Positions 11,588 through 32,449 of a stretch of 64,000 nt of DNA are shown here, one piece after another. The stretch lies in contig CBDHDF010000010.1 in the NCBI GenBank assembly GCA_965261545.1, positions 992,001 through 1,056,000 on the forward strand. The letters run 5' to 3'. The position numbers and the translations under genes were made by a program. Each line of letters starts with the position of its first letter. Position 1 is the first letter of the stretch. The notes beneath the pieces are model-generated. The model saw nothing but the letters and a program-made list of their open reading frames with translations, was not told the origin of the DNA and made no database searches. The DNA comes from Bdellovibrionales bacterium. Its GTDB lineage: Bacteria > Bdellovibrionota > Bdellovibrionia > Bdellovibrionales > UBA1609.

Positions 11588-13874
11588 AAGAATAAAAAAC
11601 CACGAACACCTATGAGAAGCTTCCTGATTTTATTTATGGCTGAAGACACGTCAATATTTTCTATTTTCATACTTACCTTATGAAAATATTAACATGCCTT
11701 TTTTTCATTAAAAAAAATGCACTAGGATTCGTTCTAAGAAGCAAAAGGAATGAGAAGTGCCCCCCGCGACCTATGTTTCACAATCTTTCAATACTATGGC
11801 TCTCAGAGAGTTTAAGGCATATGCAGGAACATATTCGATAAAGAACAAATGAAAGAGGTCGTTTGCTTCAAAAACTTGTCAAGAATTTTTATACTTTTTT
11901 TAAAAAAATTGTTCGAATTAATGCGGCACCCCCTGAATAGTTACTATGAATCTCCGGGGTAGTTTGGACGCACGAATCCACTATCCGTTCTTCGAATTTT
12001 TTCAAATGTCCGAGTTTTTAAATCATCCTACATTACATGAAATCATACTTTTTTAACGCTCTAATCCACCTTGGTGCATTTTTTTTCACCATGAGCTTTT
12101 CATAGTCAATTCCAGGGTCTTTGTAGGGGGTGTCATTACTTATGACTGAATAAACAACTCCCATCATTTTGTGACCAACGGCAATCACTGATCTCTTGTG
12201 CCCACGCCTTATAACAAGTGATTGGTATTTGCCTTTGAATTGTGAATTCGTCTTAATAGCACTATTGGCCATCTCACATACCAACGATTTCACATATGTG
12301 TTCGCTTTCCTCGTTCGTGAAGACTTTTTTTTCCTGCGCTCTCATTATTGGATGGGCAAATCCCCATCCAGGAGCAAAAATTTCCTTTATTTTTAAAAGA
12401 CTTCACATTGCCTCCTATTTCTGCAATCAAAAGCGCTGCACTTAATTCGTCAATTCCAGGTATAGTCTGGAGTAGATGCCACTGCCTTTCATAGGGTTTC
12501 ATACGAATGAAAAGTTCTTCTTCAATTTGAGAGCATTCTTTTTTCAAAAAATCTATTCGATCAAGAATGCGTTGAAGAACAAAACGATTTTCTTCCGTCA
12601 TCTTTCCCGACAGGGCGTAAGAAAATTCTTCGGTCTTTTGACGTAAAGACCCTCTGGCAAGAGACATCAATTTAGAAACTGATCTCTCTCCATTAGCTAG
12701 TTTCTGTCCAGAAAGGCCCATTTTTTGTTCTCTGACACTCCCCATTGAGCCTCCCAATGCCTCAATGGGGGAGTGAGAGTTGGAGATTTGCCACACAAAC
12801 TCTACAGATTAAGGGGAAAAAGGTCTTTAAGCGACTTGCGCCCTAGTTTTTTCGATTTGAAGACGCACCCCTACCTTTGGAAGATTTTAGCACCTTCGAC
12901 CTGGTCCATTGCTGTTATTCCTAATGGATAAATTTAGGTGACAGTTGATAATTCATGTCTTGCCAAGACAACAAAATTATAGGCACAAACGGCATTCTTT
13001 ACATACCTCTTAAAACCATCATGCCCTTTCCAGTAAGCAACTCTCATACCAAAACATCTCTTAAGGAATGAAATAACAGCCTCTATTCCGGCTCTCCAAT
13101 TGAGAAGATTTTTAAAGACCCAAGCACTTTTAACCATCTTTAATATTTTCATTCCTTTTTTTTCTGGGAAGCAAACATCTTTAGCCCCCATCTCTTTGGC
13201 CTCTTCAAGATTTTCTTTTGAAGCAAACCCACCATCTGCACTTACTTTTACAGGGCAAGCCCCATAGGTTTGTGTCACTGAATTCATAACTTTTAAAAAC
13301 ATATCAGAGTCTGCGGGGTTGCCATCAGGGATCTGACAATCTAAAATCATGTTGCTTTGCCCTGAGGTCAAAAAGATTTTATGCCCAAACTCGACTTCTC
13401 TTTGCCCCTTTACAATAATGTCTGTATGCGGTTCAAAGATGGATAGGACCTTTTTTTCAGAAGATACTTTTTTCCCCTCAATAACTCTTTTTTGAGTTTG
13501 AAAGATGATTTTTTCCAGGTAGAAGGCAACATTTTCTAACTGTTTTAGACTCTTTTTCAAAGCATTCATCTTCACACATTTTTGTTCTTTTTTTATCTTT
13601 CTGATGGTATCAGGTAATCCTTTGTTCAATTTGGTAGCGATTTTTAAAAGCTCCTTATAGCAAGGTAGTCTTTCCGCATCATTTTTGGAATTATTAATTT
13701 TGTAAAGCAAGGTTTTTGCTCTCTTAAGATCTTCTCTTGAAATAAGTCGCCAAAAATCTTTCATGACATTTTTACGAACTTTTTTAAATTCTCTTTCTGT
13801 AACTCTTATGCAGTCATATAAAAGCGATGCATCCGTTGGATGATGAATATTTGATCACTCATGTTGATACCCCC

Positions 13875-15920
13875 TTAGTAACGTAGCTTTTTAATTGATC
13901 CGGACTTAAGTTTTTTAAAGTCAGATATGGTTTTTTTCTTATCTGGAAAGAGATAAGCCTTTGTTTTCTCGTGTTTTTTGACAATGATCCTCCCTTGTTT
14001 AATATGGTGATAAATCCAATGAACTTTAACATCAATAAGTGCTGCAATTTGAGATGTTGTGAGGCTTCCCTCGACTTTGGTCGGAAAAGAGTGCTTTCGA
14101 TTCCGATAGATTTTATTGTTTAGTCTATAGGACTTCACAGTATTTCTGAGAAAAGTGGTATCCATTGGTGATCTGAATCCTTTTTGGGTCAATAGTTTGG
14201 CAATATCTTCATCAGACACCCCAAGCTTGACCTGATGCGCAATTATTTTCTTTATCGTTTCAGAAGATGACAGTTCATCAAAAGATCCAACTTTGATTGG
14301 AATGCTAGCTTCTGTTGTATCTCCTCCAATCCAAACAATTCTCAGTGCAACCATATCTCTTTTCTTTCTGTGAATGACAACCTTTTCAACCAATGTTCTA
14401 AGAATTTTCTTTTTCATGTCTTTGGTCAATATCTTATCCTCCCATAGCGAAGGTAGTTTTTGATTCAAATCTGAAAATTCTCTTTTCATTTTTTGAGAGA
14501 TCACAGTTGGAATACGCTGTTCATTCTTAACCCTCTCTAGGTGATCTTCGGCTTTTTTAAGTATTACTAAAGCCTCTTCCCATTGTGTTTCTAATTCATC
14601 TGCAACAAGTCTATTCTCAGGGTCTACTTTGCGATACCTCTTTTCTACCAGTTGAGCTTCATACCTTAAACGCTGAATTTGCTGAATGTGTGATTTGTAA
14701 ACCTCTTGGTCAATTTTTGACTTATTTTCTAAAGCCTTGGCATACAAGTCTAGCTCGACAGGGGAAAGAACCTTAAAAAAAGCGTTTACTACATAATCAT
14801 CGATTGGATCTGTAGGAATGAATTGGCAAGTAGGTTCCCGATGTTGTTGGCGTAGATAGTTGCATAAGTATCGAGTTGCTGTTTTATACTGCACTGACAT
14901 TTTGTGGCCACATTCTCCACAATAGACTATCCCATGTAAGAGGGCCTTACCAGGGCGAGGTATGCCTCTTGTTTTATTACGAGTATATTCAGTGTAGTTG
15001 TCTTTTAGAATTTCTTGTATCTTTAAGAATGTATTCCAATCGATATATTTAGGATATTTATCTTTCACAACAATTTTCCATTCATTAAGTGGAAGCTTTG
15101 TACGCTTAAGTTTTCCAGCTAAGTCTTTTCTACGGTATTCAGCTTTGCCATATACAAAAGTTCCGCTATAAGCTGGATTCTTCAAAATAGAAAGTATGGC
15201 TGCCTTGGATGTTTTTTTCCAATGAATACTTTTTACAAAATCAACTCTTGGAAGTAAGAGGTTGTTATCGTTAAAAAATCGCGACACCTTACCGGCTGAT
15301 TTCAGTTTTAAGAATATAGTAAATACTAAATTTATGCGATCTTGTAAATCTTTATTTGGATCTTTTAGCACTTTACCTTGTTCTGTTCGAATAAAACCAA
15401 CTGGTAATTTAAGAGCTAAATCTCCTCGCTTGGCTTTGTTGAGAAGACCTGCTGTTAATCTATTGCGTATCGTAAATAATTCCATTTCTGAGAGTTGACC
15501 TTTAAACCCGAGTAACATTCTTCCATTAACATTAGAAGGGTTATAAATAGACTCTCTATCAGCAATGAGGCAATTCTTAAAAGCACACAGATCAAGTAAT
15601 TGGTACCAGTCCGTACAGTTTCTAGATAGACGAGTGACATCGTACGATAGAATAATACCAATTTTTTCCAAGGTCACTTCTGCAAGGATATTCTTGAAGC
15701 CTTCTCTAAACTGTATACTACTTCCTGTGATCCCCAAATCATCATCGACAATTTCAATACTATCTTCTTGCCAACCTAATTCAGTAGCTCTTTGCCTGAG
15801 TGAGTATTGAAGGTCGAGACTTTCTTTGTTTTTGATGGCTTGCTGAGGGGTCGACTGTCTGATGTATATTATGGCTTTTCTCTTTAAGTGAATAGGTGTA
15901 ATCAATTCCGATGTTTTCAT
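13875..15920 (-). CDS. Large serine recombinase with Zn ribbon, coiled coil and C-terminal HTH-like extension (Y4bA-like)
   Basis: YIRQST catalytic motif, D.TRLSRN, LKNPAYSG, CGECG, VDPENRLVA.ELE..W. Start taken at MKTSELIT (15920). Confidence 0.92.
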   Translation of the reverse strand: MKTSELITPIHLKRKAIIYIRQSTPQQAIKNKESLDLQYSLRQRATELGWQEDSIEIVDDDLGITGSSIQFREGFKNILAEVTLEKIGIILSYDVTRLSRNCTDWYQLLDLCAFKNCLIADRESIYNPSNVNGRMLLGFKGQLSEMELFTIRNRLTAGLLNKAKRGDLALKLPVGFIRTEQGKVLKDPNKDLQDRINLVFTIFLKLKSAGKVSRFFNDNNLLLPRVDFVKSIHWKKTSKAAILSILKNPAYSGTFVYGKAEYRRKDLAGKLKRTKLPLNEWKIVVKDKYPKYIDWNTFLKIQEILKDNYTEYTRNKTRGIPRPGKALLHGIVYCGECGHKMSVQYKTATRYLCNYLRQQHREPTCQFIPTDPIDDYVVNAFFKVLSPVELDLYAKALENKSKIDQEVYKSHIQQIQRLRYEAQLVEKRYRKVDPENRLVADELETQWEEALVILKKAEDHLERVKNEQRIPTVISQKMKREFSDLNQKLPSLWEDKILTKDMKKKILRTLVEKVVIHRKKRDMVALRIVWIGGDTTEASIPIKVGSFDELSSSETIKKIIAHQVKLGVSDEDIAKLLTQKGFRSPMDTTFLRNTVKSYRLNNKIYRNRKHSFPTKVEGSLTTSQIAALIDVKVHWIYHHIKQGRIIVKKHEKTKAYLFPDKKKTISDFKKLKSGSIKKLRY

Positions 15921-16017
15921 ATATAATCTCCTCAATGGCTAAAGTTAAGTCTTTGATGACTTGCTTTTGAATTTCTTTTGGCAGTCTTGGCCAGACATCT
16001 TTTGGTGTAATTGACAT
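15781..16017 (-). CDS. Small hypothetical protein of LSR element A
   Basis: VWPRLPKEIQKQVI helical ORF overlapping the recombinase start. Resembles small ORFs that often precede such recombinases. Confidence 0.45.
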   Translation of the reverse strand: MSITPKDVWPRLPKEIQKQVIKDLTLAIEEIIYENIGIDYTYSLKEKSHNIHQTVDPSASHQKQRKSRPSILTQAKSY

Positions 16018-16211
16018 AGTTGCTCTTCCAGTTGTTGAGTCAGTGAAATTAGCTCCTGAATTGCAACTATACCAAGTTTGCTTGGGGCCTGCCTATCGTA
16101 GAGATTGGGGTTCAGATTGGTAGAAGCCAATGGTATGCGTAGCGTCATGTGGTTCTTGTATTGAACAAAAGCAAAAGTAGATTTTTTCTGATTTTTAGGT
16201 ATGGAAATCAC
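15945..16211 (-). CDS. Small hypothetical protein of LSR element A (Y4bD-like)
   Basis: First ORF of the element, with a LRIPLASTNL motif. Confidence 0.5.
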   Translation of the reverse strand: MISIPKNQKKSTFAFVQYKNHMTLRIPLASTNLNPNLYDRQAPSKLGIVAIQELISLTQQLEEQLCQLHQKMSGQDCQKKFKSKSSKT

Positions 16212-18148
16212 CTTGAATGACTTCCTATAAAGGGGATGGGAGGGGTCCGTGACCCTTAGCTCTCTAAAACCTCTGTCGTTGACGGGGGTATTAAGTAATG
16301 GACTCGTTTGATTTCGTCACTGTACTGTCCAATCTCATTTTCTTACACGGCTCAATCTTTTGATCTCTTGCATCTGAAACTAAAGAGGCGCTAATAATTC
16401 CCCAAGTTTCTTCACTTATTTGAACAATCAAGTCCTGTAAGGTGGAGTGAGCGTAATTTTCTTCCAATTCAAGGCCCAGAAAAGCTCTGGTGGATACTGA
16501 ATCGACAAGATTAAAGGCTAACGCACGATAGGAAAGACCTCTTATGGATTTAAGAATAGCCACCTTGAGAACTTGCTCCGATGTCATACCAATATCACCA
16601 GAATCTTTCTTTTCTTTAACAAGGTCTTCATGAACCATATGGGCAAACTCTGGATGGCGATCAATGATGTTATTAATTTGCTGCAATTCTGTACTGAGTT
16701 GGTGGTTAGGATATTGGGAAAAGAGTCCCAACTGTGTCTTCTTCAAATGGCGCATAGTCCCCCCTTTGGTGAAAGTTTCTCTTTAATTTTTATATTAACA
16801 TACGTTTTTTTGAGGGAAAAAAGTGAGCAAGGATGTCTTTTAAGAAGAAAAAAATCAGAGAGGTTCTCGGAGAACATGGATAAGAATTCTACCTCATAGA
16901 GAGGTTCCCACGCCTCCTAAAACCTACATAAAAAATAAATGAAGAATAAAATATCAAAAATTATTTCTCTGAAAAAACACGTCAAGTATTTTTTGAAGTT
17001 GATGCGCAACGTAATGTTATTTCCCTGAAGGAGGTTTGAAATCACCACGGTGGAAACACAGGTTGATCCAACTCTTCCTCTCATATCAAGTAACCAGTTG
17101 ATAGCCACATAAGTCACTGAAAGGGAGGGGCTGTGAAAGGTTCGTCAAGAGAGGGGGGGGAACTTATTTTATTTTTCCGTTTTATGTAAGTAACTGAATT
17201 TACACGGATTATGTTTGATGGACTCCATTTTAAAGCATAAAATCTAAAGGGAAGGCATGTAAATACTTAAAACTACTTAACTTTCTTCCCTGGACAGGAA
17301 CTAGCTATGGCACGAATCATGGCCATACCAGATACGCAGTCAGCTTTAGACATTGCATAGGTTAAACGAATGCCTGAATATTCAAGAACCTTATACATAC
17401 GATTTTGTTCCGAAGATATTTGGCGGATCGTTTTTGTACGATAACGAGCCAAAAGTCTAATAGAACGAATCTCACGTGGAGGAATGAAGCTAGCTCTTAG
17501 AAGACCACAAGCACCAAGCTCTGCAATCCACTGGCTATCCAACACGTCAGTTTTTTTACCAGTAATATTTTTGACATGAAAGGCATTGATAACATCTACT
17601 TCATAACCTTTTTCTGTCAAATCATCGTATAAAGAATTCCAATAAATCCCTGTGCTCTCAAAAAGAACTCTCTCAACCTTATGTGGCTTCATCCAAGAGC
17701 GCATTCTAGGAAAATTTTTTGGAAAATTCTTGAACTCTTTTGTGAAAAACTTCTTCTTACCGTCTTCCACTTTGACAATCGTACACATCAACATATGTTG
17801 ATGAACATCTATTCCACAAACAGAACTATAAATAATATCCACATGACTCCTCCTTTCTGTTAGAAAAAAAGAAGGTGATAAAACTAGAGCCTTGGGATTT
17901 TGCCATAAATTCTAAAGCGAAAATAGGTCAACTTACTATGAATCTCCGGGGTAGTTTGGACGCACGAATCCACTATCCGTTCTTCGAATTTTTTCAAATG
18001 TCCGAGTTTTTAAATCATCCTACATTACATGAAATCATACTTTTTTAACGCTCTAATCCACCTTGGTGCATTTTTTTTCACCATGAGCTTTTCATAGTCA
18101 ATTCCAGGGTCTTTGTAGGGGGTGTCATTACTTATGACTGTAAAATTG

Positions 18149-20058
18149 GTTACGGTAGGAATGCGTGTTGCCACGCACCCCCCGCACAGATCCGGACGTG
18201 CTCGTTAAAGCATCCGGCTCCTACTTCAGGTGGTACCGCATAGCGAACCTATCTGTTGGCCACGGGTGGCGTATGGATATACGAGGCCAGAATAGACGAA
18301 TCATTCTATCCAACCTCTTCCACGAGAATCTCCGTCCACGCTGTGAGCGTCGTCGGATGGCTTTCATCCAAGCACTCCTGATTGCGCAAATAAATTTTCG
18401 TAGGTACACCGTACTTCCTGGAACCGCAAAATAATTGAGCCAGCCTTTGATGACCAAACCCAACCACTTTGCACATTCCGCTAGGTCCCTCGTGTAGACT
18501 CGTTTTCTCAGACTCAGCTTCAGGTGCTGTAAGGTCCGGCAGACTCTCTTGGATATGGGTTTACGCCCTATCCTAAAGCCTCCTTTCCTCGTGCGCACAC
18601 AAAAGTGAGTGAATCCTAAGAAATCAAAAGTCTCGGAGTGACCAAGACCTCGTCGGCGGCAATTTGCATTTGCAAATCGACCGAACTCTATGAGGCGAGT
18701 TTTCCCCGGATGTATTTCTAGAGAAAACTCCTTAAGCCTGCGCTTCAGATCATTGAGGAAGCGTTCAGCTTCCCCCTTGTATTGAAAGCCTACGACAAAG
18801 TCATCGGCGTAGCGAACAAATATCATGTCCCCTGTGGCATGGTCCTTGCGCCATTTCTGCATCCATAAATCCAACACATAATGTAAATATATGTTGGCGA
18901 AGATAGGGGAAATATTTGAACCTTGAACGGTCCCTCTCCCTGTGTCTTCTAAGACGCCTTGAGATAGCACTCCGCACTTGAGCCACTTTTCAAAGAGACG
19001 AATGAGTCTCTCATCTCCGATGAGGTGTTTTAGAAAGCGAATTAGAGTCTTTCTATCCACGCTATCGAAGTAGGATTTTATATCCGCATCCAATATGTAG
19101 CTGATCTTCCTACGCTCTATTCCGTAAGCCAGAGCATCCAACGCATTATGCGCTCCACGCCCTGGACGGAATCCGTAGCTATAACCGAGGAAATGTTCCT
19201 CGTAGATGGGAGAGAGGATGCTGTCTACAACGGCCTTCTGGACAATCTTGTCCTCCAAGGCCAGGACACCCAAGGGTCTTGTGCCCCCGTCTGACTTGGG
19301 TATTTCTACCCGCAAGACAGGTTGCCCTTTGTAAGCACCCGTGTGGACCCGACGATGTAAATCGAACAGGTTTTGCACGAGGTTCTCGCCATACTCCTTC
19401 CATGTTAAATGGTCCACTCCCGCACTGGCTCCCCTATTCAAATAGAGGTAAGCCAAGTGGAGGGCTTCCACAGATACATGGTGAAGCAAGCAAGTGAGCT
19501 TACCATCCTTTCTCTTTGCTGCTATACGGACTCGCTCCGTCGCCTGTGACACCTTTTCCCAACTCTGTGTTCGGCAGATGCTTTGACGGATTGAGTTCCC
19601 TTCAGTTCCACCCCTTCGCTCCAAGGACTCCGCTGGGCTTGTAGGCCCTTTGTTCGTCCTCTTCATCGCTACTATGAGTGGATCCGATTTCTTTATTTCG
19701 TTCATGGGTTACGGTTACCTCCTTTCCCATGTCGCCCGTCGCACATGACGGGGTTAAATAAAGACCTCCCGAGGTCCCGAGATAAGATTCATGTATGTGC
19801 CAGTTTCTACGACGCCGTGGAGTCACCCACCAACTCACCATAGCGCTGGTGGGTATGTTGCGTTCGGCTACCATGACAGCCTCCGCACTCCAGAGTTCGG
19901 CATTTTCGACGCTCAATTATTTGGCCCACACACACCCCTACCGATACATCGCTTCGGCCTCACGGCCGACAGCGCACGGCTTGGGGAGAGAAGTGGTCGG
20001 TTGACCTTCCTCTCGGGGGACTCTAACCCCCTATCTTATCTCAGTTCGCCCGGCGAAC
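18149..20058 (-). mobile_element. Group II intron, copy 1 (1910 nt, intact)
   Basis: RT/maturase ORF. Domain V GAGCCGGATGC...GCACGTCCGGATC and domain VI ending CCTACCGTAAC. 5' end GTTCG. Confidence 0.95.
18221..19705 (-). CDS. ltrA: Group II intron reverse transcriptase/maturase, no endonuclease domain
   Basis: RPLG, SYGFRPGR, DADI..YFD, QGS.ISP, YADD, FDFLGF, GWLNYF. Ends HPWP..RF. Confidence 0.95.
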   Translation of the reverse strand: MNEIKKSDPLIVAMKRTNKGPTSPAESLERRGGTEGNSIRQSICRTQSWEKVSQATERVRIAAKRKDGKLTCLLHHVSVEALHLAYLYLNRGASAGVDHLTWKEYGENLVQNLFDLHRRVHTGAYKGQPVLRVEIPKSDGGTRPLGVLALEDKIVQKAVVDSILSPIYEEHFLGYSYGFRPGRGAHNALDALAYGIERRKISYILDADIKSYFDSVDRKTLIRFLKHLIGDERLIRLFEKWLKCGVLSQGVLEDTGRGTVQGSNISPIFANIYLHYVLDLWMQKWRKDHATGDMIFVRYADDFVVGFQYKGEAERFLNDLKRRLKEFSLEIHPGKTRLIEFGRFANANCRRRGLGHSETFDFLGFTHFCVRTRKGGFRIGRKPISKRVCRTLQHLKLSLRKRVYTRDLAECAKWLGLVIKGWLNYFAVPGSTVYLRKFICAIRSAWMKAIRRRSQRGRRFSWKRLDRMIRLFWPRISIRHPWPTDRFAMRYHLK

Positions 20059-21275
20059 CATGGCATTGCCCGCACCAGTTGGTTACGGTAGGAATGCGTG
20101 TTGCCACGCACCCCCCGCACAGATCCGGACGTGCTCGTTAAAGCATCCGGCTCCTACTTCAGGTGGTACCGCATAGCGAACCTATCTGTTGGCCACGGGT
20201 GGCGTATGGATATACGAGGCCAGAATAGACGAATCATTCTATCCAACCTCTTCCACGAGAATCTCCGTCCACGCTGTGAGCGTCGTCGGATGGCTTTCAT
20301 CCAAGCACTCCTGATTGCGCAAATAAATTTTCGTAGGTACACCGTACTTCCTGGAACCGCAAAATAATTGAGCCAGCCTTTGATGACCAAACCCAACCAC
20401 TTTGCACATTCCGCTAGGTCCCTCGTGTAGACTCGTTTTCTCAGACTCAGCTTCAGGTGCTGTAAGGTCCGGCAGACTCTCTTGGATATGGGTTTACGCC
20501 CTATCCTAAAGCCTCCTTTCCTCGTGCGCACACAAAAGTGAGTGAATCCTAAGAAATCAAAAGTCTCGGAGTGACCAAGACCTCGTCGGCGGCAATTTGC
20601 ATTTGCAAATCGACCGAACTCTATGAGGCGAGTTTTCCCCGGATGTATTTCTAGAGAAAACTCCTTAAGCCTGCGCTTCAGATCATTGAGGAAGCGTTCA
20701 GCTTCCCCCTTGTATTGAAAGCCTACGACAAAGTCATCGGCGTAGCGAACAAATATCATGTCCCCTGTGGCATGGTCCTTGCGCCATTTCTGCATCCATA
20801 AATCCAACACATAATGTAAATATATGTTGGCGAAGATAGGGGAAATATTTGAACCTTGAACGGTCCCTCTCCCTGTGTCTTCTAAGACGCCTTGAGATAG
20901 CACTCCGCACTTGAGCCACTTTTCAAAGAGACGAATGAGTCTCTCATCTCCGATGAGGTGTTTTAGAAAGCGAATTAGAGTCTTTCTATCCACGCTATCG
21001 AAGTAGGATTTTATATCCGCATCCAATATGTAGCTGATCTTTCTACGCTCTATTCCGTAAGCCAGAGCATCCAACGCATTATGCGCTCCACGCCCTGGAC
21101 GGAATCCGTAGCTATAACCGAGGAAATGTTCCTCGTAGATGGGAGAGAGGATGCTGTCTACAACGGCCTTCTGGACAATCTTGTCCTCCAAGGCCAGGAC
21201 ACCCAAGGGTCTTGTGCCCCCGTCTGACTTGGGTATTTCTACCCGCAAGACAGGTTGCCCTTTGTAAGCACCCGT

Positions 21276-23213
21276 TACTCCTCGGACACAATAGACAACT
21301 TTTCCATTGAAATTTCCATAAATATATATAATCATTCACTTTATGCAAGTGGTCGTAAATATGCTCACTATCGTTGGCATCCACCTGAGGATTCTTCCCA
21401 TTTAGCTTCGAACCATAGTCAAAGGAATGATAATGGCCCACCAAACAAAACATCAAAATCCATGGACAGCTCAGCTAAAAAGTGTCTATCAAAGCGACCA
21501 AACCACACGGATTCAACAGACATACGAAGTTGTTGTTCCAAAAATAAAGAAACAATTAAAGCAGAAAGTAAAACAACAGAAAATAATGGAGGTTAAAAAT
21601 GGAAACATCAGTAGCTCTTTATTGTCGAGTGTCCTCAGATAAACAAGCTCAAGAGGGAACCATTGATTCACAGATTTCTAGTCTTCACGATTTCGCTAAG
21701 GAACACAATTTTTGTGTAGAGGAGGATCTTATATTTATGGATAATGGTGTGAGTGGCGCCACCCTTGTTCGTCCTGCTTTAGACTCTCTTCGCGACAAAG
21801 CTTTTTCTGGGGAGGTTACAAAGGTACTTGTGTTATGTCCAGACAGATTAGCTCGTAAATATGCCCATCAATTGATTCTAATTGAAGAATTTCAGAGGCT
21901 AGGTGTTGAAATTATTTTTTCTAATAGAGATATTACAAATTCACCCGAAGATCAGCTTTTGCTACAAATACAAGGAGTCATTTCAGAATATGAAAGAGAA
22001 AAAATTATGGAAAGAAGTCGAAGGGGTAAACTTCAAAAGGCTTCTAAGGGCTTTGTTAGCGTTTTATGTGGAGCCCCCTATGGTTATATATATATTCTGA
22101 AAACAGACTCCGCTGACGCACGATATGAAATCCATCCAGAAGAGTCTAAAGTTGTTAAAAATATTTTTCAAATGTATTGCCGAAACAAACTAAGTATTAG
22201 AGCAATTGCAAAGGAATTAAATATAAGGGGGGTGCCTACTAGAAGACAACAAGGTATTTGGGGGCGTTCAACTATCTTGTGTATGCTTAAAAATCCCGCT
22301 TATTATGGACAAGCTGCTTTTAGAAAGACTATCAAGGTAGAAAGGTTGCGTCCAACCAAGTTCGCAAGAGACAATAATTTTTATCCAAAAAAACATAAAT
22401 CAAGTTCTTCCAATCGAAATAAAAAGGATTGGATATATATTCCCGTTCCATCTATAATTTCTTCAAAAACTTTTCAAGATGCGTCCAGCCAATTGGAAGC
22501 TAACAAAAAACTTTCCTCTCGGAATAATAAAAAATATGAGTATTTGTTAAGTGGTCTTTTACGATGCAAAGAGTGTGGTTATTCGATCTATGGCAAACCT
22601 GCTTCTCACTCAAGGTATAAGCTTTGTTATTATCGCTGCATGGGACAAGATGGTTATAGGTGGCCAGCTAAAGGTAGAGTTTGCTCATCTCATCCCGTAA
22701 GAGTTGAAGTTTTAGATGACTTAGTTTGGGAACAAACAGTTAAATTACTTGAAAATCCTCAGACAGTTATAGATGAGTATACAAGTAGAATTCATGAGCA
22801 AAAAGGTGAACAACAATCATTGGAAAAATTAATTGTAAAAAAGGCTCAGGAGATTCGTCAAATAACACATGAAAAGGAACGTCTCTTGGATCTTTATCAA
22901 AATGGAACTCTAAATCTATCAGAAATAGAGTCACGATTAAAAAAAATAAGAGGAAAAATAAAGCAACTTGAAAATGAAAAGCAATCTTTAGAGTATGAGC
23001 AAAGGCAAGAAGGACAACAACTACAGCTTGTAGATCAACTCCAAGAATTCCAAAAAAAAGTGAGTGCCAATTTAAAGGTATTGAGTTTTGAGCAAAAAAA
23101 GGAGATTGTAAGGCTACTGGTGAAGGAGGTTGAGGTGAACATTAAGGCAAGTGAAATTGTAGTTCGACACGTTGTGCCAACCTCCAAAAGTTTGCCATTG
23201 TGTCCGGGGAGTA
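21276..23213 (+). mobile_element. Minimal LSR element B (1938 bp plus GT core)
   Basis: GT at both junctions (21274-75, 23214-15). Terminal IR TACTCCTCGGACACAAT / ATTGTGTCCGGGGAGTA (16/17). Confidence 0.9.
21427..21642 (+). CDS. Small hypothetical protein upstream of the recombinase (possible accessory/directionality factor)
   Basis: AAGGA upstream, overlaps the recombinase start, contains QTYEVVVP. Function is inference only. Confidence 0.4.
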   Translation: MIMAHQTKHQNPWTAQLKSVYQSDQTTRIQQTYEVVVPKIKKQLKQKVKQQKIMEVKNGNISSSLLSSVLR

Positions 23214-23233
23214 GTGTGGACCCGACGATGTAA
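21599..23233 (+). CDS. Large serine recombinase; stop codon supplied by flanking target DNA
   Basis: YCRVSS, D.GVSG...RPAL, PDRLAR, PYGY, LKNPAYYG, CKECG. The last 20 nt lie outside the element. Confidence 0.93.
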   Translation: METSVALYCRVSSDKQAQEGTIDSQISSLHDFAKEHNFCVEEDLIFMDNGVSGATLVRPALDSLRDKAFSGEVTKVLVLCPDRLARKYAHQLILIEEFQRLGVEIIFSNRDITNSPEDQLLLQIQGVISEYEREKIMERSRRGKLQKASKGFVSVLCGAPYGYIYILKTDSADARYEIHPEESKVVKNIFQMYCRNKLSIRAIAKELNIRGVPTRRQQGIWGRSTILCMLKNPAYYGQAAFRKTIKVERLRPTKFARDNNFYPKKHKSSSSNRNKKDWIYIPVPSIISSKTFQDASSQLEANKKLSSRNNKKYEYLLSGLLRCKECGYSIYGKPASHSRYKLCYYRCMGQDGYRWPAKGRVCSSHPVRVEVLDDLVWEQTVKLLENPQTVIDEYTSRIHEQKGEQQSLEKLIVKKAQEIRQITHEKERLLDLYQNGTLNLSEIESRLKKIRGKIKQLENEKQSLEYEQRQEGQQLQLVDQLQEFQKKVSANLKVLSFEQKKEIVRLLVKEVEVNIKASEIVVRHVVPTSKSLPLCPGSSVDPTM

Positions 23234-25035
23234 ATCGAACAGGTTTTGCACGAGGTTCTCGCCATACTCCTTCCATGTTAAATGGTCCACTCCCGCACTG
23301 GCTCCCCTATTCAAATAGAGGTAAGCCAAGTGGAGGGCTTCCACAGATACATGGTGAAGCAAGCAAGTGAGCTTACCATCCTTTCTCTTTGCTGCTATAC
23401 GGACTCGCTCCGTCGCCTGTGACACCTTTTCCCAACTCTGTGTTCGGCAGATGCTTTGACGGATTGAGTTCCCTTCAGTTCCACCCCTTCGCTCCAAGGA
23501 CTCCGCTGGGCTTGTAGGCCCTTTGTTCGTCCTCTTCATCGCTACTATGAGTGGATCCGATTTCTTTATTTCGTTCATGGGTTACGGTTACCTCCTTTCC
23601 CATGTCGCCCGTCGCACATGACGGGGTTAAATAAAGACCTCCCGAGGTCCCGGGATAAGATTCATGTATGTGCCAGTTTCTACGACGCCGTGGAGTCACC
23701 CACCAACTCACCATAGCGCTGGTGGGTATGTTGCGTTCGGCTACCATGACAGCCTCCGCACTCCAGAGTTCGGCATTTTCGACGCTCAATTATTTGGCCC
23801 ACACACACCCCTACCGATACATCGCTTCGGCCTCACGGCCGACAGCGCACGGCTTGGGGAGAGAAGTGGTCGGTTGACCTTCCTCTCGGGGGACTCTAAC
23901 CCCCTATCTTATCTCAGTTCGCCCGGCGAACCATGGCATTGCCCGCACTGATTGGCATGACTGATTCCCCTTAGCATAGCGTCATTGATGTTCTATAAAG
24001 ACCTCCAATCTTTAACCAAGGAGGTCGAAATGAGAACAAAGATGGATCATGAGCGTTACACAAAAATAAAATCATTAATAAAGGCAAATATTCCCGACCG
24101 AGAAATCAGTCGCCGCATGAAATGCTGCACCAAGACTCTTAGAAAGATAAGACGTGGTCTTTTAACAGACCCCAAGGATTGGAAGACCCAAAGAGAAATT
24201 CCCCCTTGGTCTTACGGTATAGATTGGAAGATTATTGAGAAGGAGATTGAGGATAGGCATTGTTTAAGTGACGTTTGGGAGGAAAAATTTCTGAAGGTCA
24301 TTAGCTACCCCCAGTTTACGAGGGAGTTTCATAAGCAATTTCCAAAAGCTGGCAAAAGGATTATTACCTTGCGTGATTTTCAGCCAGGCCACCAAGTTGA
24401 GGTTGATTACGCAGGATTTCAGCCAGAGTGGATCGATGAAGACCTTAATATTCATAAGGCCCATATATTTTGCTCAAATCTATGTTTCTCTCAGCGTATT
24501 TTTGCTTATGGCTCTTTGAGCGAATCTAGTGAAGATTTTCTTCACGCTCACGTTCTGATGTTTGAATATTACGGTGGGGTTCCGAGAGTGGTTGTTCCTG
24601 ATAATTTAAAGACTGGAGTGAACACACCCCATTTGTATGATCCAGAGTTGAATAAATCCTACCAAGAGCTTTTGGAACACTATGACACGGTGGCTGTTCC
24701 CGCTCGAGTTCGTCGTCCCCAGGATAAAAGCCTTACTGAGAATGCCGTGAAGCTCGTTACAAGGGCCCTCAGGTTTATGTACAGACGAGAGACCTTCACC
24801 AGTCTGGATCAAATTAATAAGGCTTTAAGGGAGGTGTGCGAGAAGATAAATGCTCGCCCTCACACAAGATTTAAGGTCTCTCGCAATGAAAAATTTCAAC
24901 GAGAGGTAAAAACTTTAAAACCCTTGCCTTCTTTTCCCTACCGGTGGGGACGTTGGGAGAAGAAAAAACTCCACCAAGACTGTCATGTGAGCGTTGAATC
25001 CAACTTCTACTCGGCTCCGTTTCAGCACCGAGGGG

Positions 25036-25085
25036 TGTTAGGCGCCAATTAAAATTGGCCATTTTTAGAAGCCGTCGCCAATGAA
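25036..25085 (+). mobile_element. Orphan terminal fragment of a second, probably IS21-like, element
   Basis: TGTTAGGCGCCAATTAAAATTGGCC...GTCGCCAATGAAAA: starts TG, has an internally repeated CGCCAAT.AAAA motif, and matches neither flanking element. Confidence 0.5.
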
Positions 25086-26129
25086 AAACGGCGTACATTA
25101 AACTTTTTTCTCATTTTATCAACAATATCTGAAAGCGTCTTGCCTTCAAAAGTATTACCAGGGAAAACCTCAAAACCTAAAGGGATGCCATCCCGATTCA
25201 CCAACAAACCAAAGACAACTTGGGTGCAGTCTGATCGTCTCTCTTTACTATAGCCAAATTGACGAAGTTTCCCTAAGTCTGTTCTTGTACTCTCGAAGCG
25301 TAAGGTTGTTAAATCATACAACACAATGTCTACTTGGAAATTAAATAAATCTCGCCCCACCCAATAAAGCGAGTTCTCTATTTCATCCTTATGGGAGGCA
25401 AGTAAGTCCATAGACCGATAAATATGCTGGAGACTCAAATCACCCTTAATCATGTCTGGGTAAAAAGATTTTTGCCAATACTCAAAAACCTTTAACTTGG
25501 AACTAGGAGCAATAAATCGGCTGGCAACTAAGGTAAAAATCACCTTACATAAATCAAATTGAACTTTCTCATGAGAATCTTTTATGTCTTTGAGGGTCTT
25601 ATTGATACCCAGTTGATCAAACAACTTTTGTAAAATCAGCAAGGGACCCAAAATGAAAGTCTCTTCGATGTAAAGCTCCTTAGCCAATTGACTCACAGTG
25701 AGAAGCTCTCGGTGGCGGGATACGGCCTGCGCCAAACTATTAATCTTATCCTCTCCTCCTTCCAGCGCGTCATGCGAGCCTTGCGCACTGATAAAACTGC
25801 GCCAAACTATTAATCTTATCCTCTCCTCCTTCTCCAGCCTTACCTAAGGACATGAGCATGCGTTTTTTGGATTTGCCTTTTTCTCTGTAGGACTCCACAA
25901 GGTGGTAGTAGCACTGACCTTTTGAGTTTTTAGTCGTTTGGATGTACATGAGGATATTTTCTACATATTTCTATGATATATCAATATTTAAAACGATAAA
26001 ATCCTATTTTGTTTTCTACACTTTTTTTACGTCAATTTTAATTTTTCCAGCAGCTACCATTATATTTCAGTACAACCCCAATTTCTGGAAATTTCGCATT
26101 TTAACGCAGATGCTGCTGTCAAACTCGGG
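25086..26129 (-). mobile_element. Truncated IS1634 (left end and 5' part of transposase)
   Basis: Near-identical to 54050-55021, including the TIR. Breaks at ...KFNVRRF and carries a 70-bp insertion. Confidence 0.9.
25727..25832. repeat. 36-bp direct repeat flanking a 34-bp unrelated insert (repeat-spacer-repeat geometry)
   Basis: CTGCGCCAAACTATTAATCTTATCCTCTCCTCCTTC at 25727-25762 and 25797-25832. Single copy and no insert in the sister element (54347-54382). Confidence 0.92.
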
Positions 26130-26601
26130 ATTTACTTTCAAAAACAGCTCCTCGCTCGCCACAAGAGGACCAAAGGTAAACTCGGAGAGTACATCACCAA
26201 AAACGAACACCTCCCGGAGCCCAGTCGCGCCTACAAGGAGGCCACTCCCCAGAACATTCTTATTCAAGCAAGTATGATTTGTAAAGAGCTTGAAAACTTC
26301 ATTGAGGAGCTTTTTCAGGGTGGGACCATTGAAAATCTCAGAAGAGCTATGGGCTTTGTAAGCTCCTGTCACAAAGAAATCCAGAAAGAGGGCAAGGAAA
26401 AGTCCCTTCCTCTCATTATCAAAGCCCTTGAGGACTGCAAGCAGTGGGAGAAAAGGAGGGTTAGATATTTTCAGCAACAACTCCATTTCTATAAAGGGCA
26501 AAAAATAAAAAAGGTGAACGAGAAAATAGATCGTAAACAAGGCAACCCTTATTTGCGACATAACGAAAATCCAAATAACCAAAGCCCCAAGGAGGTGCCA
26601 G

Positions 26602-27354
26602 ATGGATGAAGTACAAATCAAAAACCACATGCATGAGTTGAAGCTCTATGGAATGTTAGACAGCCTTGAAGTGGCGCTGGATAACACAAGCCACAAGACT
26701 CAAGCATTGGATCTATTGAACGAGCTGTTATTTGCAGAAGTGGAGGCTCGGAAAATCCAATTCAGCCAAAGACTTCTCAAGACCTCAAAGCTGCCTCACA
26801 AGGTCAGAGGTGAGGCATTTGACCACCATGCCAAAAGGTCTATTAGTAAAAGAGAGGTGGATAGGCTTCAAACTTTATCATGGGTTAAGGAGCAAAGGTC
26901 TATCATTGTCGAAGGGCCAACGGGGGTGGGTAAAACCTTCTTGGCCCAGAGCCTGGGACACCAGTGTTGTCAATCCAGAATCTCCACACTGTTTATAGAC
27001 ATCAACATATTTCTAGAAACCTTGGCCCTGGAAAGGCACTCAGGAAGGTATTTGAACTACTTGCGTCGTCTGGGCCGCCCCCAAGTGTTAATTTTTGATG
27101 ACTTTGGATTAAGGAAGTTCTCCCAAAGTGAATCCACAGACTTCTGCGATATTTTAAAGTTTCGTTCCGATAGGTCCACCGTTATTACCACTCAACTGCC
27201 AATAACGCATTGGTCAGAAATTATTGATGATGAGGTGCTGGCAGATACTATCATCGACCGTTTGAAGCATACCGCCATAAAAATTTTACTTAAAGGAGAG
27301 AGTTATCGAAAAATCCAGGGAACAAAACTTGACCAGGACTTTTCCCTAAAATAG
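26602..27354 (+). CDS. istB: IS21 helper ATPase IstB
   Basis: GPTGVGKT Walker A, LIFDDFG Walker B, ADTIIDRL, GESYRK. Confidence 0.93.
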   Translation: MDEVQIKNHMHELKLYGMLDSLEVALDNTSHKTQALDLLNELLFAEVEARKIQFSQRLLKTSKLPHKVRGEAFDHHAKRSISKREVDRLQTLSWVKEQRSIIVEGPTGVGKTFLAQSLGHQCCQSRISTLFIDINIFLETLALERHSGRYLNYLRRLGRPQVLIFDDFGLRKFSQSESTDFCDILKFRSDRSTVITTQLPITHWSEIIDDEVLADTIIDRLKHTAIKILLKGESYRKIQGTKLDQDFSLK

Positions 27355-28609
27355 GAAGAAATAGGATTACAAATTAACTAAAATTTTCCCCAGAAATGGG
27401 AAGGAAAATCATCAATGACGCATTGAAATAGGGAAAGTGAGGGTAATGGGTGCAACCAGTGCGGGCAATACGCGCAATTGTACACTTATGACTGAATAAA
27501 CAACTCCCATCATTTTGTGACCAACGGCAATCACTGATCTCTTGTGCCCACGCCTTATAACAAGTGATTGGTATTTGCCTTTGAATTGTGAATTCGTCTT
27601 AATAGCACTATTGGCCATCTCACATACCAACGATTTCACATATGTGTTCGCTTTCCTCGTTCGTGAAGACTTTTTTTTTCCTGCGCTCTCATTATTGGAT
27701 GGGCAAATCCCCATCCAGGAGCAAAAATTTCCTTTATTTTTAAAAGACTTCACATTGCCTCCTATTTCTGCAATCAAAAGCGCTGCACTTAATTCGTCAA
27801 TTCCAGGTATAGTCTGGAGTAGATGCCACTGCCTTTCATAGGGTTTCATACGAATGAAAAGTTCTTCTTCAATTTGAGAGCATTCTTTTTTCAAAAAATC
27901 TATTCGATCAAGAATGCGTTGAAGAACAAAACGATTTTCTTCCGTCATCTTTCCCGACAGGGCGTAAGAAAATTCTTCGGTCTTTTGACGTAAAGACCCT
28001 CTGGCAAGAGACATCAATTTAGAAACTGATCTCTCTCCATTAGCTATGGCACGAATCATGGCCATACCAGATACGCAGTCAGCTTTAGACATTGCATAGG
28101 TTAAACGAATGCCTGAATATTCAAGAACCTTATACATACGATTTTGTTCCGAAGATATTTGGCGGATCGTTTTTGTACGATAACGAGCCAAAAGTCTAAT
28201 AGAACGAATCTCACGTGGAGGAATGAAGCTAGCTCTTAGAAGACCACAAGCACCAAGCTCTGCAATCCACTGGCTATCCAACACGTCAGTTTTTTTACCA
28301 GTAATATTTTTGACATGAAAGGCATTGATAACATCTACTTCATAACCTTTTTCTGTCAAATCATCGTATAAAGAATTCCAATAAATCCCTGTGCTCTCAA
28401 AAAGAACTCTCTCAACCTTATGTGGCTTCATCCAAGAGCGCATTCTAGGAAAATTTTTTGGAAAATTCTTGAACTCTTTTGTGAAAAACTTCTTCTTACC
28501 GTCTTCCACTTTGACAATCGTACACATCAACATATGTTGATGAACATCTATTCCACAAACAGAACTATAAATAATATCCACATGACTCCTCCTTTCTGTT
28601 AGAAAAAAA

Positions 28610-28796
28610 GAAGGTGATAAAACTAGAGCCTTGGGATTTTGCCATAAATTCTAAAGCGAAAATAGGTCAACTTACTATACGTCCATACACTCAGAGTGCA
28701 GGTACATGCGTGGGTTCGATCCAAAGCTCAAGACCATGTTACTTCACGGAATTAAAATTACCAATCTATTCAACGGCCACTCATCTTATCACCTTC
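28610..28796 (-). ncRNA. Putative IS110 bridge/seek RNA region
   Basis: Non-coding DNA just upstream of the IS110 ORF, closed by a perfect 11-bp IR GAAGGTGATAA (28610-28620) / TTATCACCTTC (28786-28796). Contains ATAGTAA matching the element circle junction. Limits are approximate. Confidence 0.5.
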
Positions 28797-29313
28797 CAAT
28801 AATGTTATTGCTTTATCCTTTATTGTATCGGAATCATACATGACAAAAATACCATCAAAAGTCCAGAGTAACTAAAAGAGGCCAATTATATAGACCAGCG
28901 AAGCTGTCCACCGAGTTGCTTCGTGCAAAGAAGTGGGGGCCTAGAAAGATTCATGGGCGTGGGTGGGGAAGCAAGGCGCCCCCATGAATGTTACTATACG
29001 TCCATACACTCAGAGTGCAGGTACATGCGTGGGTTCGATCCAAAGCTCAAGACCATGTTACTTCACGGAATTAAAATTACCAATCTATTCAACGGCCACT
29101 CATCTTATCACCTTCCAATAATGTTATTGCTTTATCCTTTATTGTATCGGAATCATACATGACAAAAATACCATCAAAAGTCCAGAGTAACTAAAAGAGG
29201 CCAATTATATAGACCAGCGAAGCTGTCCACCGAGTTGCTTCGTGCAAAGAAGTGGGGGCCTAGAAAGATTCATGGGCGTGGGTGGGGAAGCAAGGCGCCC
29301 CCATGAATGTTAC
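28672..29313. repeat. Tandem duplication of a 319-bp non-coding IS110 end
   Basis: Units start with TTAC at 28672 and 28991; closing TTAC at 29310. Confidence 0.95.
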
Positions 29314-29678: not shown

Positions 29679-29757
29679 CAGGTAGGTACATACTATTAAA
29701 TTTTGTATACCAATTAGGTTGGAGAGCTGTCTTTGCAGTTCTCCATTTCTCTTCGCA

Positions 29758-29805
29758 CAACGAAGCAACGAAGCAACGAAGCAACGAAGCAACGAAGCAA
29801 CGAAG
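29758..29805. repeat. Six perfect copies of CAACGAAG
   Basis: Direct count. Lies about 30 bp upstream of the ATG at 29836. Confidence 0.95.
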
Positions 29806-30539
29806 GCATTAAATTGCTACCATAAGGAGAATGACATGACTTTTATGAAAAATATGAAAGAAAAGATAGCATTACTCACCTTACTTACATGCAGCTTATG
29901 GCTTATCTTACTTGCGCCCACATCCTCTCTTGCTGTCGTCAGTGGTGGTGGCTGTGGAAGCGAAGAGCCCCAAGCTCCCAAGTATGATCTTAAGAAACAC
30001 AAAGAGAATACCGCCACCATGGGCTTTCTACTGTACCAATACCTAAATGAAAATGTAGACCAAGTTGCCATTGTGGCACGGGCAGGAGGAGATGTCTCTA
30101 AAGAAAATTTTCGTTATCCCTCTCAACTAAAGTATACCCATGCAGGTATTGCTTGGAAAAACTCCAAGGGCCATTGGTATTTCAAACATGTTCTCAATAC
30201 TTGTGCAGGACCAACCTCTGACATATACGATCAAAGCCTTGCTCAATTTTTTAATGATAGCCCATACTTCTATGATTTCATAGTTGGGTCCCCCTCCAAG
30301 GAATTACAAGACAAAATGATCCAAGTATTAGAGGATGAGAAGCTTGTCCAAAAAATTCACAACCCCGACTACAGCAATATAGCAAATCCATTCAATAGAG
30401 TGTATCAGAATTCCAATGGATGGGTATTAAATGCCCTAGCCGCAGCCCAAAGCGGGAAATCGACACTCCGTGGTCTCATGAATTATTATAAAAGACAAGG
30501 CTTTCGACCTAGTCAAGTTGAGGTTGGATTTTTTAAAAG

Positions 30540-32449
30540 GTTACGGTAGGAATGCGTGTTGCCACGCACCCCCCGCACAGATCCGGACGTGCTCGTTAAA
30601 GCATCCGGCTCCTACTTCAGGTGGTACCGCATAGCGAACCTATCTGTTGGCCACGGGTGGCGTATGGATATACGAGGCCAGAATAGACGAATCATTCTAT
30701 CCAACCTCTTCCACGAGAATCTCCGTCCACGCTGTGAGCGTCGTCGGATGGCTTTCATCCAAGCACTCCTGATTGCGCAAATAAATTTTCGTAGGTACAC
30801 CGTACTTCCTGGAACCGCAAAATAATTGAGCCAGCCTTTGATGACCAAACCCAACCACTTTGCACATTCCGCTAGGTCCCTCGTGTAGACTCGTTTTCTC
30901 AGACTCAGCTTCAGGTGCTGTAAGGTCCGGCAGACTCTCTTGGATATGGGTTTACGCCCTATCCTAAAGCCTCCTTTCCTCGTGCGCACACAAAAGTGAG
31001 TGAATCCTAAGAAATCAAAAGTCTCGGAGTGACCAAGACCTCGTCGGCGGCAATTTGCATTTGCAAATCGACCGAACTCTATGAGGCGAGTTTTCCCCGG
31101 ATGTATTTCTAGAGAAAACTCCTTAAGCCTGCGCTTCAGATCATTGAGGAAGCGTTCAGCTTCCCCCTTGTATTGAAAGCCTACGACAAAGTCATCGGCG
31201 TAGCGAACAAATATCATGTCCCCTGTGGCATGGTCCTTGCGCCATTTCTGCATCCATAAATCCAACACATAATGTAAATATATGTTGGCGAAGATAGGGG
31301 AAATATTTGAACCTTGAACGGTCCCTCTCCCTGTGTCTTCTAAGACGCCTTGAGATAGCACTCCGCACTTGAGCCACTTTTCAAAGAGACGAATGAGTCT
31401 CTCATCTCCGATGAGGTGTTTTAGAAAGCGAATTAGAGTCTTTCTATCCACGCTATCGAAGTAGGATTTTATATCCGCATCCAATATGTAGCTGATCTTT
31501 CTACGCTCTATTCCGTAAGCCAGAGCATCCAACGCATTATGCGCTCCACGCCCTGGACGGAATCCGTAGCTATAACCGAGGAAATGTTCCTCGTAGATGG
31601 GAGAGAGGATGCTGTCTACAACGGCCTTCTGGACAATCTTGTCCTCCAAGGCCAGGACACCCAAGGGTCTTGTGCCCCCGTCTGACTTGGGTATTTCTAC
31701 CCGCAAGACAGGTTGCCCTTTGTAAGCACCCGTGTGGACCCGACGATGTAAATCGAACAGGTTTTGCACGAGGTTCTCGCCATACTCCTTCCATGTTAAA
31801 TGGTCCACTCCCGCACTGGCTCCCCTATTCAAATAGAGGTAAGCCAAGTGGAGGGCTTCCACAGATACATGGTGAAGCAAGCAAGTGAGCTTACCATCCT
31901 TTCTCTTTGCTGCTATACGGACTCGCTCCGTCGCCTGTGACACCTTTTCCCAACTCTGTGTTCGGCAGATGCTTTGACGGATTGAGTTCCCTTCAGTTCC
32001 ACCCCTTCGCTCCAAGGACTCCGCTGGGCTTGTAGGCCCTTTGTTCGTCCTCTTCATCGCTACTATGAGTGGATCCGATTTCTTTATTTCGTTCATGGGT
32101 TACGGTTACCTCCTTTCCCATGTCGCCCGTCGCACATGACGGGGTTAAATAAAGACCTCCCGAGGTCCCGGGATAAGATTCATGTATGTGCCAGTTTCTA
32201 CGACGCCGTGGAGTCACCCACCAACTCACCATAGCGCTGGTGGGTATGTTGCGTTCGGCTACCATGACAGCCTCCGCACTCCAGAGTTCGGCATTTTCGA
32301 CGCTCAATTATTTGGCCCACACACACCCCTACCGATACATCGCTTCGGCCTCACGGCCGACAGCGCACGGCTTGGGGAGAGAAGTGGTCGGTTGACCTTC
32401 CTCTCGGGGGACTCTAACCCCCTATCTTATCTCAGTTCGCCCGGCGAAC
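30540..32449 (-). mobile_element. Group II intron, copy 3 (1910 nt, intact)
   Basis: Near-identical to copy 1. Boundaries confirmed by in-frame restoration of the host gene. Confidence 0.95.
30612..32096 (-). CDS. ltrA: Group II intron reverse transcriptase/maturase
   Basis: Identical protein to 18221-19705. Confidence 0.95.
   Translation of the reverse strand: MNEIKKSDPLIVAMKRTNKGPTSPAESLERRGGTEGNSIRQSICRTQSWEKVSQATERVRIAAKRKDGKLTCLLHHVSVEALHLAYLYLNRGASAGVDHLTWKEYGENLVQNLFDLHRRVHTGAYKGQPVLRVEIPKSDGGTRPLGVLALEDKIVQKAVVDSILSPIYEEHFLGYSYGFRPGRGAHNALDALAYGIERRKISYILDADIKSYFDSVDRKTLIRFLKHLIGDERLIRLFEKWLKCGVLSQGVLEDTGRGTVQGSNISPIFANIYLHYVLDLWMQKWRKDHATGDMIFVRYADDFVVGFQYKGEAERFLNDLKRRLKEFSLEIHPGKTRLIEFGRFANANCRRRGLGHSETFDFLGFTHFCVRTRKGGFRIGRKPISKRVCRTLQHLKLSLRKRVYTRDLAECAKWLGLVIKGWLNYFAVPGSTVYLRKFICAIRSAWMKAIRRRSQRGRRFSWKRLDRMIRLFWPRISIRHPWPTDRFAMRYHLK

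Follow-up and report, generated by a model that had tools for sequence, protein, structure and literature searches.

A class E-like group II intron in the left-end repeat array of an IS21 element from a Bdellovibrionales bacterium

Targeting of the end repeats of an insertion sequence (IS) by a group II intron is known from one tested case, RmInt2, a class D (IIB3) intron of Sinorhizobium meliloti GR4 that homes into the inverted repeats of ISRm17 (PMC4615759, PMC5894124). For RmInt1 in ISRm2011-2, the multicopy IS is described as a reservoir and the intron as a proposed limit on IS spread, which it blocks via poor splicing of the interrupted transcript (PMC5894124); restraint of IS spread by introns is thus already in print. 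Here we describe a class E-like group II intron that occupies the left end of an IS21 element in a 64,000 nt stretch of DNA (the window) from a Bdellovibrionales bacterium (GCA_965261545.1, contig CBDHDF010000010.1, positions 992,001–1,056,000 of the forward strand). Searches of the open-licence literature found no paper describing either group II introns within the end repeats of IS21 or IS21 ends of variable length. The initial annotation of the window had presented homing into an IS end as an unusual habit; the published account of RmInt2 in ISRm17 (PMC4615759) provides a precedent for it.

The colonisation of the IS21 end array by this intron is real, precise and recent: the intron matches its target in sequence, its copies share one register, the target motif is almost exclusive to the IS21, and nine sites are occupied. 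Very probably, the intron was active recently and retrohomes at the unit junctions of the left-end array.

The intron shares with RmInt2, as described in the sources above, the lack of an endonuclease, a multicopy IS whose end repeats hold all or most of its copies, several targets per IS, and the possibility of tandem copies. Its protein is of another class, and is 33% identical to three identical pSymB proteins that were taken as RmInt2 by copy number, PMC5894124 placing three RmInt2 copies there. Whereas the RmInt2 target consists of two inverted repeats, the target here is a head-to-tail array of 5–10 direct units at one end, used on one strand; whole units lie between the tandem copies, and the base that recognises the 3′ exon (exon-binding site 3, EBS3) is G here and U in RmInt2. 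Judged from these sequence features, the intron works like RmInt2 and is not a member of class D. The IS itself resembles IS5376, which has istA and istB, TG...CA ends, direct repeats at both ends and a short target duplication, but the described prototype carries two repeats per end and makes 5 bp duplications, whereas the left array here has 5–10 units and the duplications are 6–8 bp. IstA of IS5376 is reported to require two complete repeats in vitro (PMC10122671).

The invaded IS21 element and its introns

The left end of the window element runs in the order terminal decamer, intron 1, one 23 bp unit, intron 2, one unit and istA:

18131–18138, plus strand: left target-site duplication, CTTATGAC, 8 bp, identical to the 8 bp at 27485–27492
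18139–27484: IS21 element, with the 8 bp target-site duplication on both sides, inside an IS110 copy
18139–18148, plus strand: terminal decamer of the IS21 left end, TGTAAAATTG, separated from the array by intron 1
18149–20058, minus strand: group II intron copy 1, uninterrupted, 1910 nt, ends GUUCG...AC
18149–18222, minus strand: domains V and VI of intron 1 (RF00029, 37.6 bits, E 2.9e-5, slightly below the gathering score of 40)
18221–19705, minus strand: intron-encoded reverse transcriptase (RT)/maturase, 494 aa, YADD motif (RVT_1 and GIIM; TIGR04416 324.9 bits, cut-off 300)
20059–20081, plus strand: 23 bp left-end unit of type D, the spacer between both introns
20082–23931, minus strand: group II intron copy 2, 3850 nt, RT gene split by a recombinase element
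23932–23954, plus strand: innermost 23 bp unit, type E
23985–26609, plus strand: istA, disrupted
26602–27354, plus strand: istB (PF01695 and NF038214 above cut-off; NF038214 204 versus 200)
27421–27484, plus strand: IS21 right end, two degenerate units, terminus CAATTGTACA, no intron
27485–27492, plus strand: right target-site duplication
30540–32449, minus strand: intron copy 3, ectopic, antisense in a DUF2145 gene

Possession of istA and istB, TG...CA ends, multiple direct repeats and a target duplication places the element in IS21. The empty site in the IS110 copy was recovered from contigs of all four sequencing runs, which connect position 18129 directly to 27484. In the window, istA is broken at 25035–26129 by about 1.09 kb of other repeated DNA and lacks about 35 bp; an undisrupted IstA of 522 aa is encoded elsewhere in the same genome (NF033546, 185 bits, cut-off 160). 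The insert in istA (25036–26128) consists of pieces of other high-copy elements, and a 228-aa open reading frame within it gave no Pfam match. A promoter scan of one empty left end returned no sites. Target duplications of 6–8 bp match on both sides of five invaded elements, indicating that the introns inserted into whole elements.

Introns 1 and 2 lie on the minus strand, antisense to istA and istB, and in identical register, after GCCATG and before C. The initial annotation had seen two introns in the same register around a 23 nt spacer, and this is borne out, but its description of the spacer as a micro-exon is not: the spacer is non-coding DNA opposite to istA, is not an exon of any gene, and presumably has no coding role. 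Intron 2 is also not the plain copy first supposed, as a 1938 bp serine-recombinase element splits its RT gene. Outside this insert, intron 1 is 99.9% identical to intron 2, with differences at positions 279 and 950, while intron 2 without its insert is identical to the ectopic copy 3. The 5′ exon of copy 3 is CCTATG, in which the intron-binding site (IBS1) pairs at five of six positions, and the 3′ exons of all three window introns begin with C, both as initially noted. The reading frame of the DUF2145 gene (29719–30539 and 32450 onwards) resumes past intron copy 3.

The assignment as a group II intron follows from the ribozyme domains, the internal RT/maturase, precise pairing of EBS1 and EBS3 with the exons, and insertion without a target duplication. 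Domain I is recognised in all three window copies (RF02005, group-II-D1D4-6, 155.8 bits, gathering score 49), and the ribozyme folds have z scores of -5.3 and -3.3, the latter for domains V/VI. A domain search of the 494-aa protein gave RVT_1 and GIIM only, and an endonuclease domain was not found. Since classes C–F are all described as lacking the endonuclease (PMC4424553), this trait does not separate class E from the others. The protein is 46–51% identical to a frame-broken intron protein on S. meliloti pRmeGR4b, from an intron described as class E (PMC5894124), and 33–35% identical to the presumed RmInt1 and RmInt2 proteins of class D, the 35% value being for the second intron protein of pRmeGR4b. 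It therefore appears nearer to the class E than to the class D references, with class E represented by a single protein taken as S.me.I4 from its location and disruption, and the intron is designated class E-like; the protein tree of 121 proteins contains no named class E or F protein. With S.me.I4 and Cl.be.I2, the class E introns described in PMC5894124, PMC3753933 and PMC4424553, it shares the lack of an endonuclease and the presence of EBS1, EBS2 and EBS3, but its 5′ end is GUUCG instead of GUGCG. Other group II RT genes, 35–37% identical, are present in the genome at C10:509259, C11:346850, C7:387889 and C11:325946.

Recognition of the 23 bp unit

The target-recognition sites of intron 1 are as follows:

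19870–19875, minus strand: EBS1 CAUGGU, intron positions 184–189, pairs with IBS1 GCCATG
19810, minus strand: EBS3 G, intron position 249, pairs with the first C of the 3′ exon
19899–19902, minus strand: probable EBS2 UGCC, intron positions 157–160, pairs with GGCA at -12 to -9

These were examined by covariation among 67 relatives from viral and metagenome contigs, aligned over their 5′ regions; 43 of the relatives have a recognisable 5′ end plus hairpin. EBS1 and IBS1 form on average 5.67 of six pairs in the 43 relatives, compared with 2.54 in 2000 shuffles (maximum 3.21), and a blind column scan recovers intron positions 184–189 for exon positions -1 to -6. The proposal that the hairpin at 19866–19881 supplies EBS1 CAUGGU is confirmed by this covariation and by the EBS1 stem of the Rfam model. 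The EBS3 identity, which had been left for checking, is also confirmed, as position 249 is the best covarying column for exon position +1 (86% complementary versus 37% expected, 51 relatives). As the relatives used are kin, these figures serve to place the sites and should not be read as probabilities.

The 4.3 Mb genome contains 50 perfect matches to GGCA-NN-GCCATG-C, 49 of them in units of this IS21, so the placement of the intron is not due to chance; a wobble-tolerant motif occurs 109 times, with 83 in IS21 units. The right end had been described as a mirror of the left. It does carry two units, but they are degenerate, and their equivalent of IBS1 is TACGCG at 14 of 16 right ends and TACGTG at the other two, which pair with EBS1 at 3–4 of six positions (by hand).

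The proposed mechanism is that EBS1, EBS2 and EBS3 are matched to the 23 bp unit and direct homing to the strand opposite to istA, where the intron ribonucleoprotein would reverse-splice into DNA. Because the protein has no endonuclease, priming would probably occur at a replication fork. Of the earlier suggestion that the homing site is the transposase-binding repeat of the IS, the repeat itself is well founded, with nine of 13 intron copies in the array, while binding of transposase by the end units is predicted from IS21 biology, as described for IS5376.

Occupancy and history of the left-end array

Across the genome, seven IS21 copies have empty left ends and seven have invaded ones. In the notation used here, T is the terminal decamer, A–J are unit types and [I] is the intron.

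Empty left ends (seven copies):
T-ABFDE
T-HIJCDE (two copies)
T-ABCCDDDE (two copies)
T-AGBCCDDE
T-ABCCDDDDDE

Invaded left ends:
T-AB[I]CCDDE
T-HIJCDCD[I]E
T-ABCCDD[I]E
T-[I]ABCCDD[I]E (C11:939833–943790, six units between the two introns)
T-[I]D[I]E (window)
[I]E (C6, truncated)
T with an intron, units lost (C7)

The intron-free ends have 5, 6, 6, 8, 8, 8 and 10 units, so the two tandem repeats of the window, initially taken as the whole left end, represent a contracted array. None of the empty copies has a single repeat, and most intron copies sit in IS21 ends and not at unrelated targets, both of which agree with the initial annotation. Of the 13 copies, nine are in a left-end array, two are ectopic (the DUF2145 gene of the window and C2:419568), and two are identical 3′ fragments that precede a right-end-type decamer and have lost their 5′ exons. 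In the 13 left ends of the genome, the decamer is followed by a unit in ten and by an intron in three. No intron was found in the 16 right ends with intact inner sequence. RmInt2 uses both ends; at right-end-type decamers of this genome stand the two fragments and a relic of a related intron, all of which have lost their 5′ exons. The relic (L006, C10:843330–843399) comprises domains V–VI of a second, 85% identical intron, directly before the decamer. The chance of a given 10-mer at a given site is about 1.6e-6. The relic suggests that sites of this kind were hit in an earlier wave.

The copy number and near-identity of the introns point to recent movement. The RT/maturase gene is intact in four of the 13 copies, while six contain the recombinase element, always at one intron position and with 99.8–100% identity:

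21276–23213, plus strand: serine-recombinase element, 1938 bp, short inverted ends, duplicated GT flanks, splits the RT gene of intron 2
21599–23233, plus strand: recombinase gene, 544 aa, with Resolvase, Recombinase and Zn ribbon domains and its stop within intron sequence

Introns with this insert occupy innermost, internal and ectopic sites, in both single-nucleotide polymorphism (SNP) lineages of the IS. Most simply, the element would have inserted once, and the 3.85 kb composite would then have spread by trans-homing or gene conversion. Free elements, variants of 97% identity, are found on C7, C10 and C11 at sites unlike the intron and away from RT matches, so that strict specialisation of the element on RT genes is not supported. 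The swapped SNP at position 279 could be explained if the element had hopped from one window intron to the other, but the counts (4/5 versus 1/4) are too small.

Insertions are concentrated at the edges of the array. An intron is present at 7 of 25 edge junctions and at 1 of 58 internal junctions (Fisher p 7e-4, overstated since the copies are non-independent). Five of the 13 type E units in the genome have an intron at their junction, the innermost one, and these fall in both SNP lineages. Units with the distal exon bases CAATC (A, E) are occupied in 6 of 21 cases, and those with CAACT (C, D) in 2 of 43. A check for replication-strand bias found GC skew to be patchy and did not separate the seven invaded from the seven empty copies. 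Three readings of the edge bias remain: the protein may prefer certain distal exon bases, slippage may remove internal insertions, or the IS may carry the innermost ones along.

The last of these could be extended to most of the occupied sites, if there were few homing events and the sites were filled by IS21 transposition with an innermost intron, or by gene conversion. The excess at innermost junctions (5/13 versus 1/58 internal) would fit, as would the outer units that are intact in three copies, given that two repeats suffice for IS5376 IstA in vitro, the confinement of a 7-unit allele to invaded copies (3/3), and the identical recombinase insert at one position in six introns. We regard this account as possible but doubtful. 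Occupied innermost junctions are found in both IS lineages, the introns there include some that have the insert and some that lack it, insert-bearing introns also sit at internal and ectopic sites, which IS transposition alone cannot give, and the distal-exon preference (6/21 versus 2/43) accounts equally well for the bias.

A second explanation makes the array a decoy, in which pressure from the intron led the IS to lengthen its left end and make the units more uniform, while slippage removes internal insertions. Twelve related IS21 left ends have about 2–8 units of 23–25 bp with 60–86% identity between adjacent units (a thirteenth locus was too short), and the second IS21 family of the same genome has about four units at 88%, whereas adjacent units in the 10-unit array here are 97% identical. 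Internal junctions are nearly empty despite 24 free type D units that match EBS1, EBS2 and EBS3 perfectly, and the right end has lost IBS1. On the other hand, extra units are extra targets, multi-unit ends are normal in this IS21 lineage, and one relative (L152, G245:C1:1777900–1778100) has about eight 24 bp units at 86% in a 94%-complete genome in which no group II RT was found, leaving the decoy explanation improbable.

The window pair could also have arisen by tandem duplication of an intron plus 23 bp in place, without a second homing event. The copies are adjacent and 99.9% identical outside the insert, and RmInt2 is reported to give head-to-tail copies in assays, though without a spacer (PMC4615759). 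The two introns nevertheless differ at positions 279 and 950 and by the 1.94 kb insert, intron 2 matches the distant copy 3, the flanking units are of different types (D and E), empty ends carry 5–10 units, and the second two-intron end on C11 has six units between its introns. In-place duplication is accordingly very unlikely.

The array normally has 5–10 units and varies in length, probably through slippage, so that many sites are on offer in a single IS. The window copy was probably first struck at the innermost and terminal junctions, as in C11:939833–943790, after which all intervening units but one were lost, either by A-to-D slippage or by recombination between the intron copies. Type D is an inner unit type and is not the first unit of any empty array. 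Since units A and D begin with the same 13 bp, an A-to-D slip would yield exactly the window spacer. The window copy would then be a contracted form of the C11 two-intron arrangement.

The initial annotation held that the intron immobilises the IS. This fits the window copy, which is predicted to be dead as a transposon because 10 bp of its end lie outside the intron, splicing cannot mend a DNA end, and istA is broken. By the two-repeat rule of IS5376, all three copies struck at T would be dead. It need not extend to the three invaded copies that retain 2, 6 or 7 intact outer units, since copies struck further in, with two or more outer units, may still be mobile. In RmInt1 the IS is described as blocked at the level of the transcript; the insertions here are antisense and lie in the non-coding DNA of the end, so that the DNA substrate is where any block takes effect, and this at some junctions only.

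Related introns and wider meaning

The intron falls in a clade of 45 members (support 1.0) in the protein tree, five of which have associated DNA. One of these, L030, is a single 2.6 kb metagenome contig carrying the 125 nt 3′ end of an intron, a 23 nt unit, a whole intron, a second unit and the start of an IS21 istA (L030:125–148 and 2060–2622), the istA match being partial and under cut-off. Its protein is 59% identical, its introns are in sense orientation, its IS21 is unrelated, and its EBS1, GUCAUC, can form pairs with each of the final six exon bases, one of them G-U (by hand). Intact relatives of this IS21 have two such 23 bp units at the left end. A second member, L029, has such a unit as its 3′ exon and has lost the 5′ exon, and the remaining three (L033, L034 and L059) use other targets that are not IS21 ends (by eye). 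Targeting of IS21 ends thus recurs in the clade but does not define it.

The four nearest proteins (P0004–P0007, 62–70% identity) are known as proteins without DNA context. A contig search with the single protein gave two distant loci, and 41 relatives yielded weak or partial matches only (32–43%). Among 401 genomes of the same phylum there were four others at 43–48%, and among 401 of another phylum three at 47–49%, none with an IS21 flank by eye. Most of the relatives retrieved use unrelated targets. A scan of viral sequences for the intron-end/IS-end junction gave no matches. A search of 82 loci (L029–L110) for IstA and IstB found only L104, and was insensitive, as it missed the short istA piece of L030. 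L104 has a class E-like intron outside the close clade, with an istB-like gene upstream and a 3′ flank resembling repeated IS21-type units.

Several points weigh against recent retrohoming at unit junctions. IBS2 is weakly supported, as EBS2 covaries at 50–57% versus about 26% expected (42–44 relatives). IIE introns are reported to splice in vitro without EBS2 (PMC3753933). Splicing, homing and IstA binding are all predictions from sequence, the order of events at the window copy cannot be fixed, and among the five clade loci with DNA only L030 clearly, and L029 partly, lie in IS21 ends. No read or contig bridges the tandem pair, since the short-read contigs of the four runs break at repeats, and the tandem arrangement rests on the assembly. 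The genome is very repeat-rich, some copies contain single-base indels and no contig crosses the locus, all of which might be expected if the locus were misassembled. That it is an artefact is nonetheless hardly credible, given the matching target duplications on both sides, the distinct SNPs of the two introns, the same architecture on C11, and the depth in run X1 (about 15–18 for the intron and 25 for the IS21 body), which is near the assembled copy ratio, although this sample may be the source of the assembly. In run X5, from a second study, the IS21 body had a depth of about 3 and most of the intron was uncovered, and it was not used as evidence.

Other repeated and mobile DNA is present in the window. 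At 28672–29313, beside the upstream end of an IS110, a stretch of about 319 bp is present twice, head to tail (by eye), and the region 12934–17842 holds a DDE transposase, a second large serine recombinase (13875–15935), a piece of a DUF772 transposase and an IS110 fragment.

To the published cases this locus adds a target array of variable length, an edge bias, a recombinase passenger and, in L030, a parallel tandem case. The seven empty and seven invaded IS21 copies form a natural series in one genome, with terminal, internal and innermost insertions in an array of 5–10 units. The series lets one ask which insertions stop the IS and which ride along, and how many repeats IstA needs in vivo, and it bears on movement in trans of an intron with a 1.9 kb passenger and a broken RT gene. 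A broader and unlikely scenario is that class E introns have repeatedly re-coded EBS1 onto the units of unrelated IS21s and that the variable array sorts the insertions, slippage removing internal ones, innermost ones leaving the end functional and riding, with the recombinase passenger, as cargo, and terminal ones alone killing the IS. If true, this would be a three-tier mobile element, a recombinase within an intron within an IS end, in which the length of the array would set the balance between parasite and vehicle.

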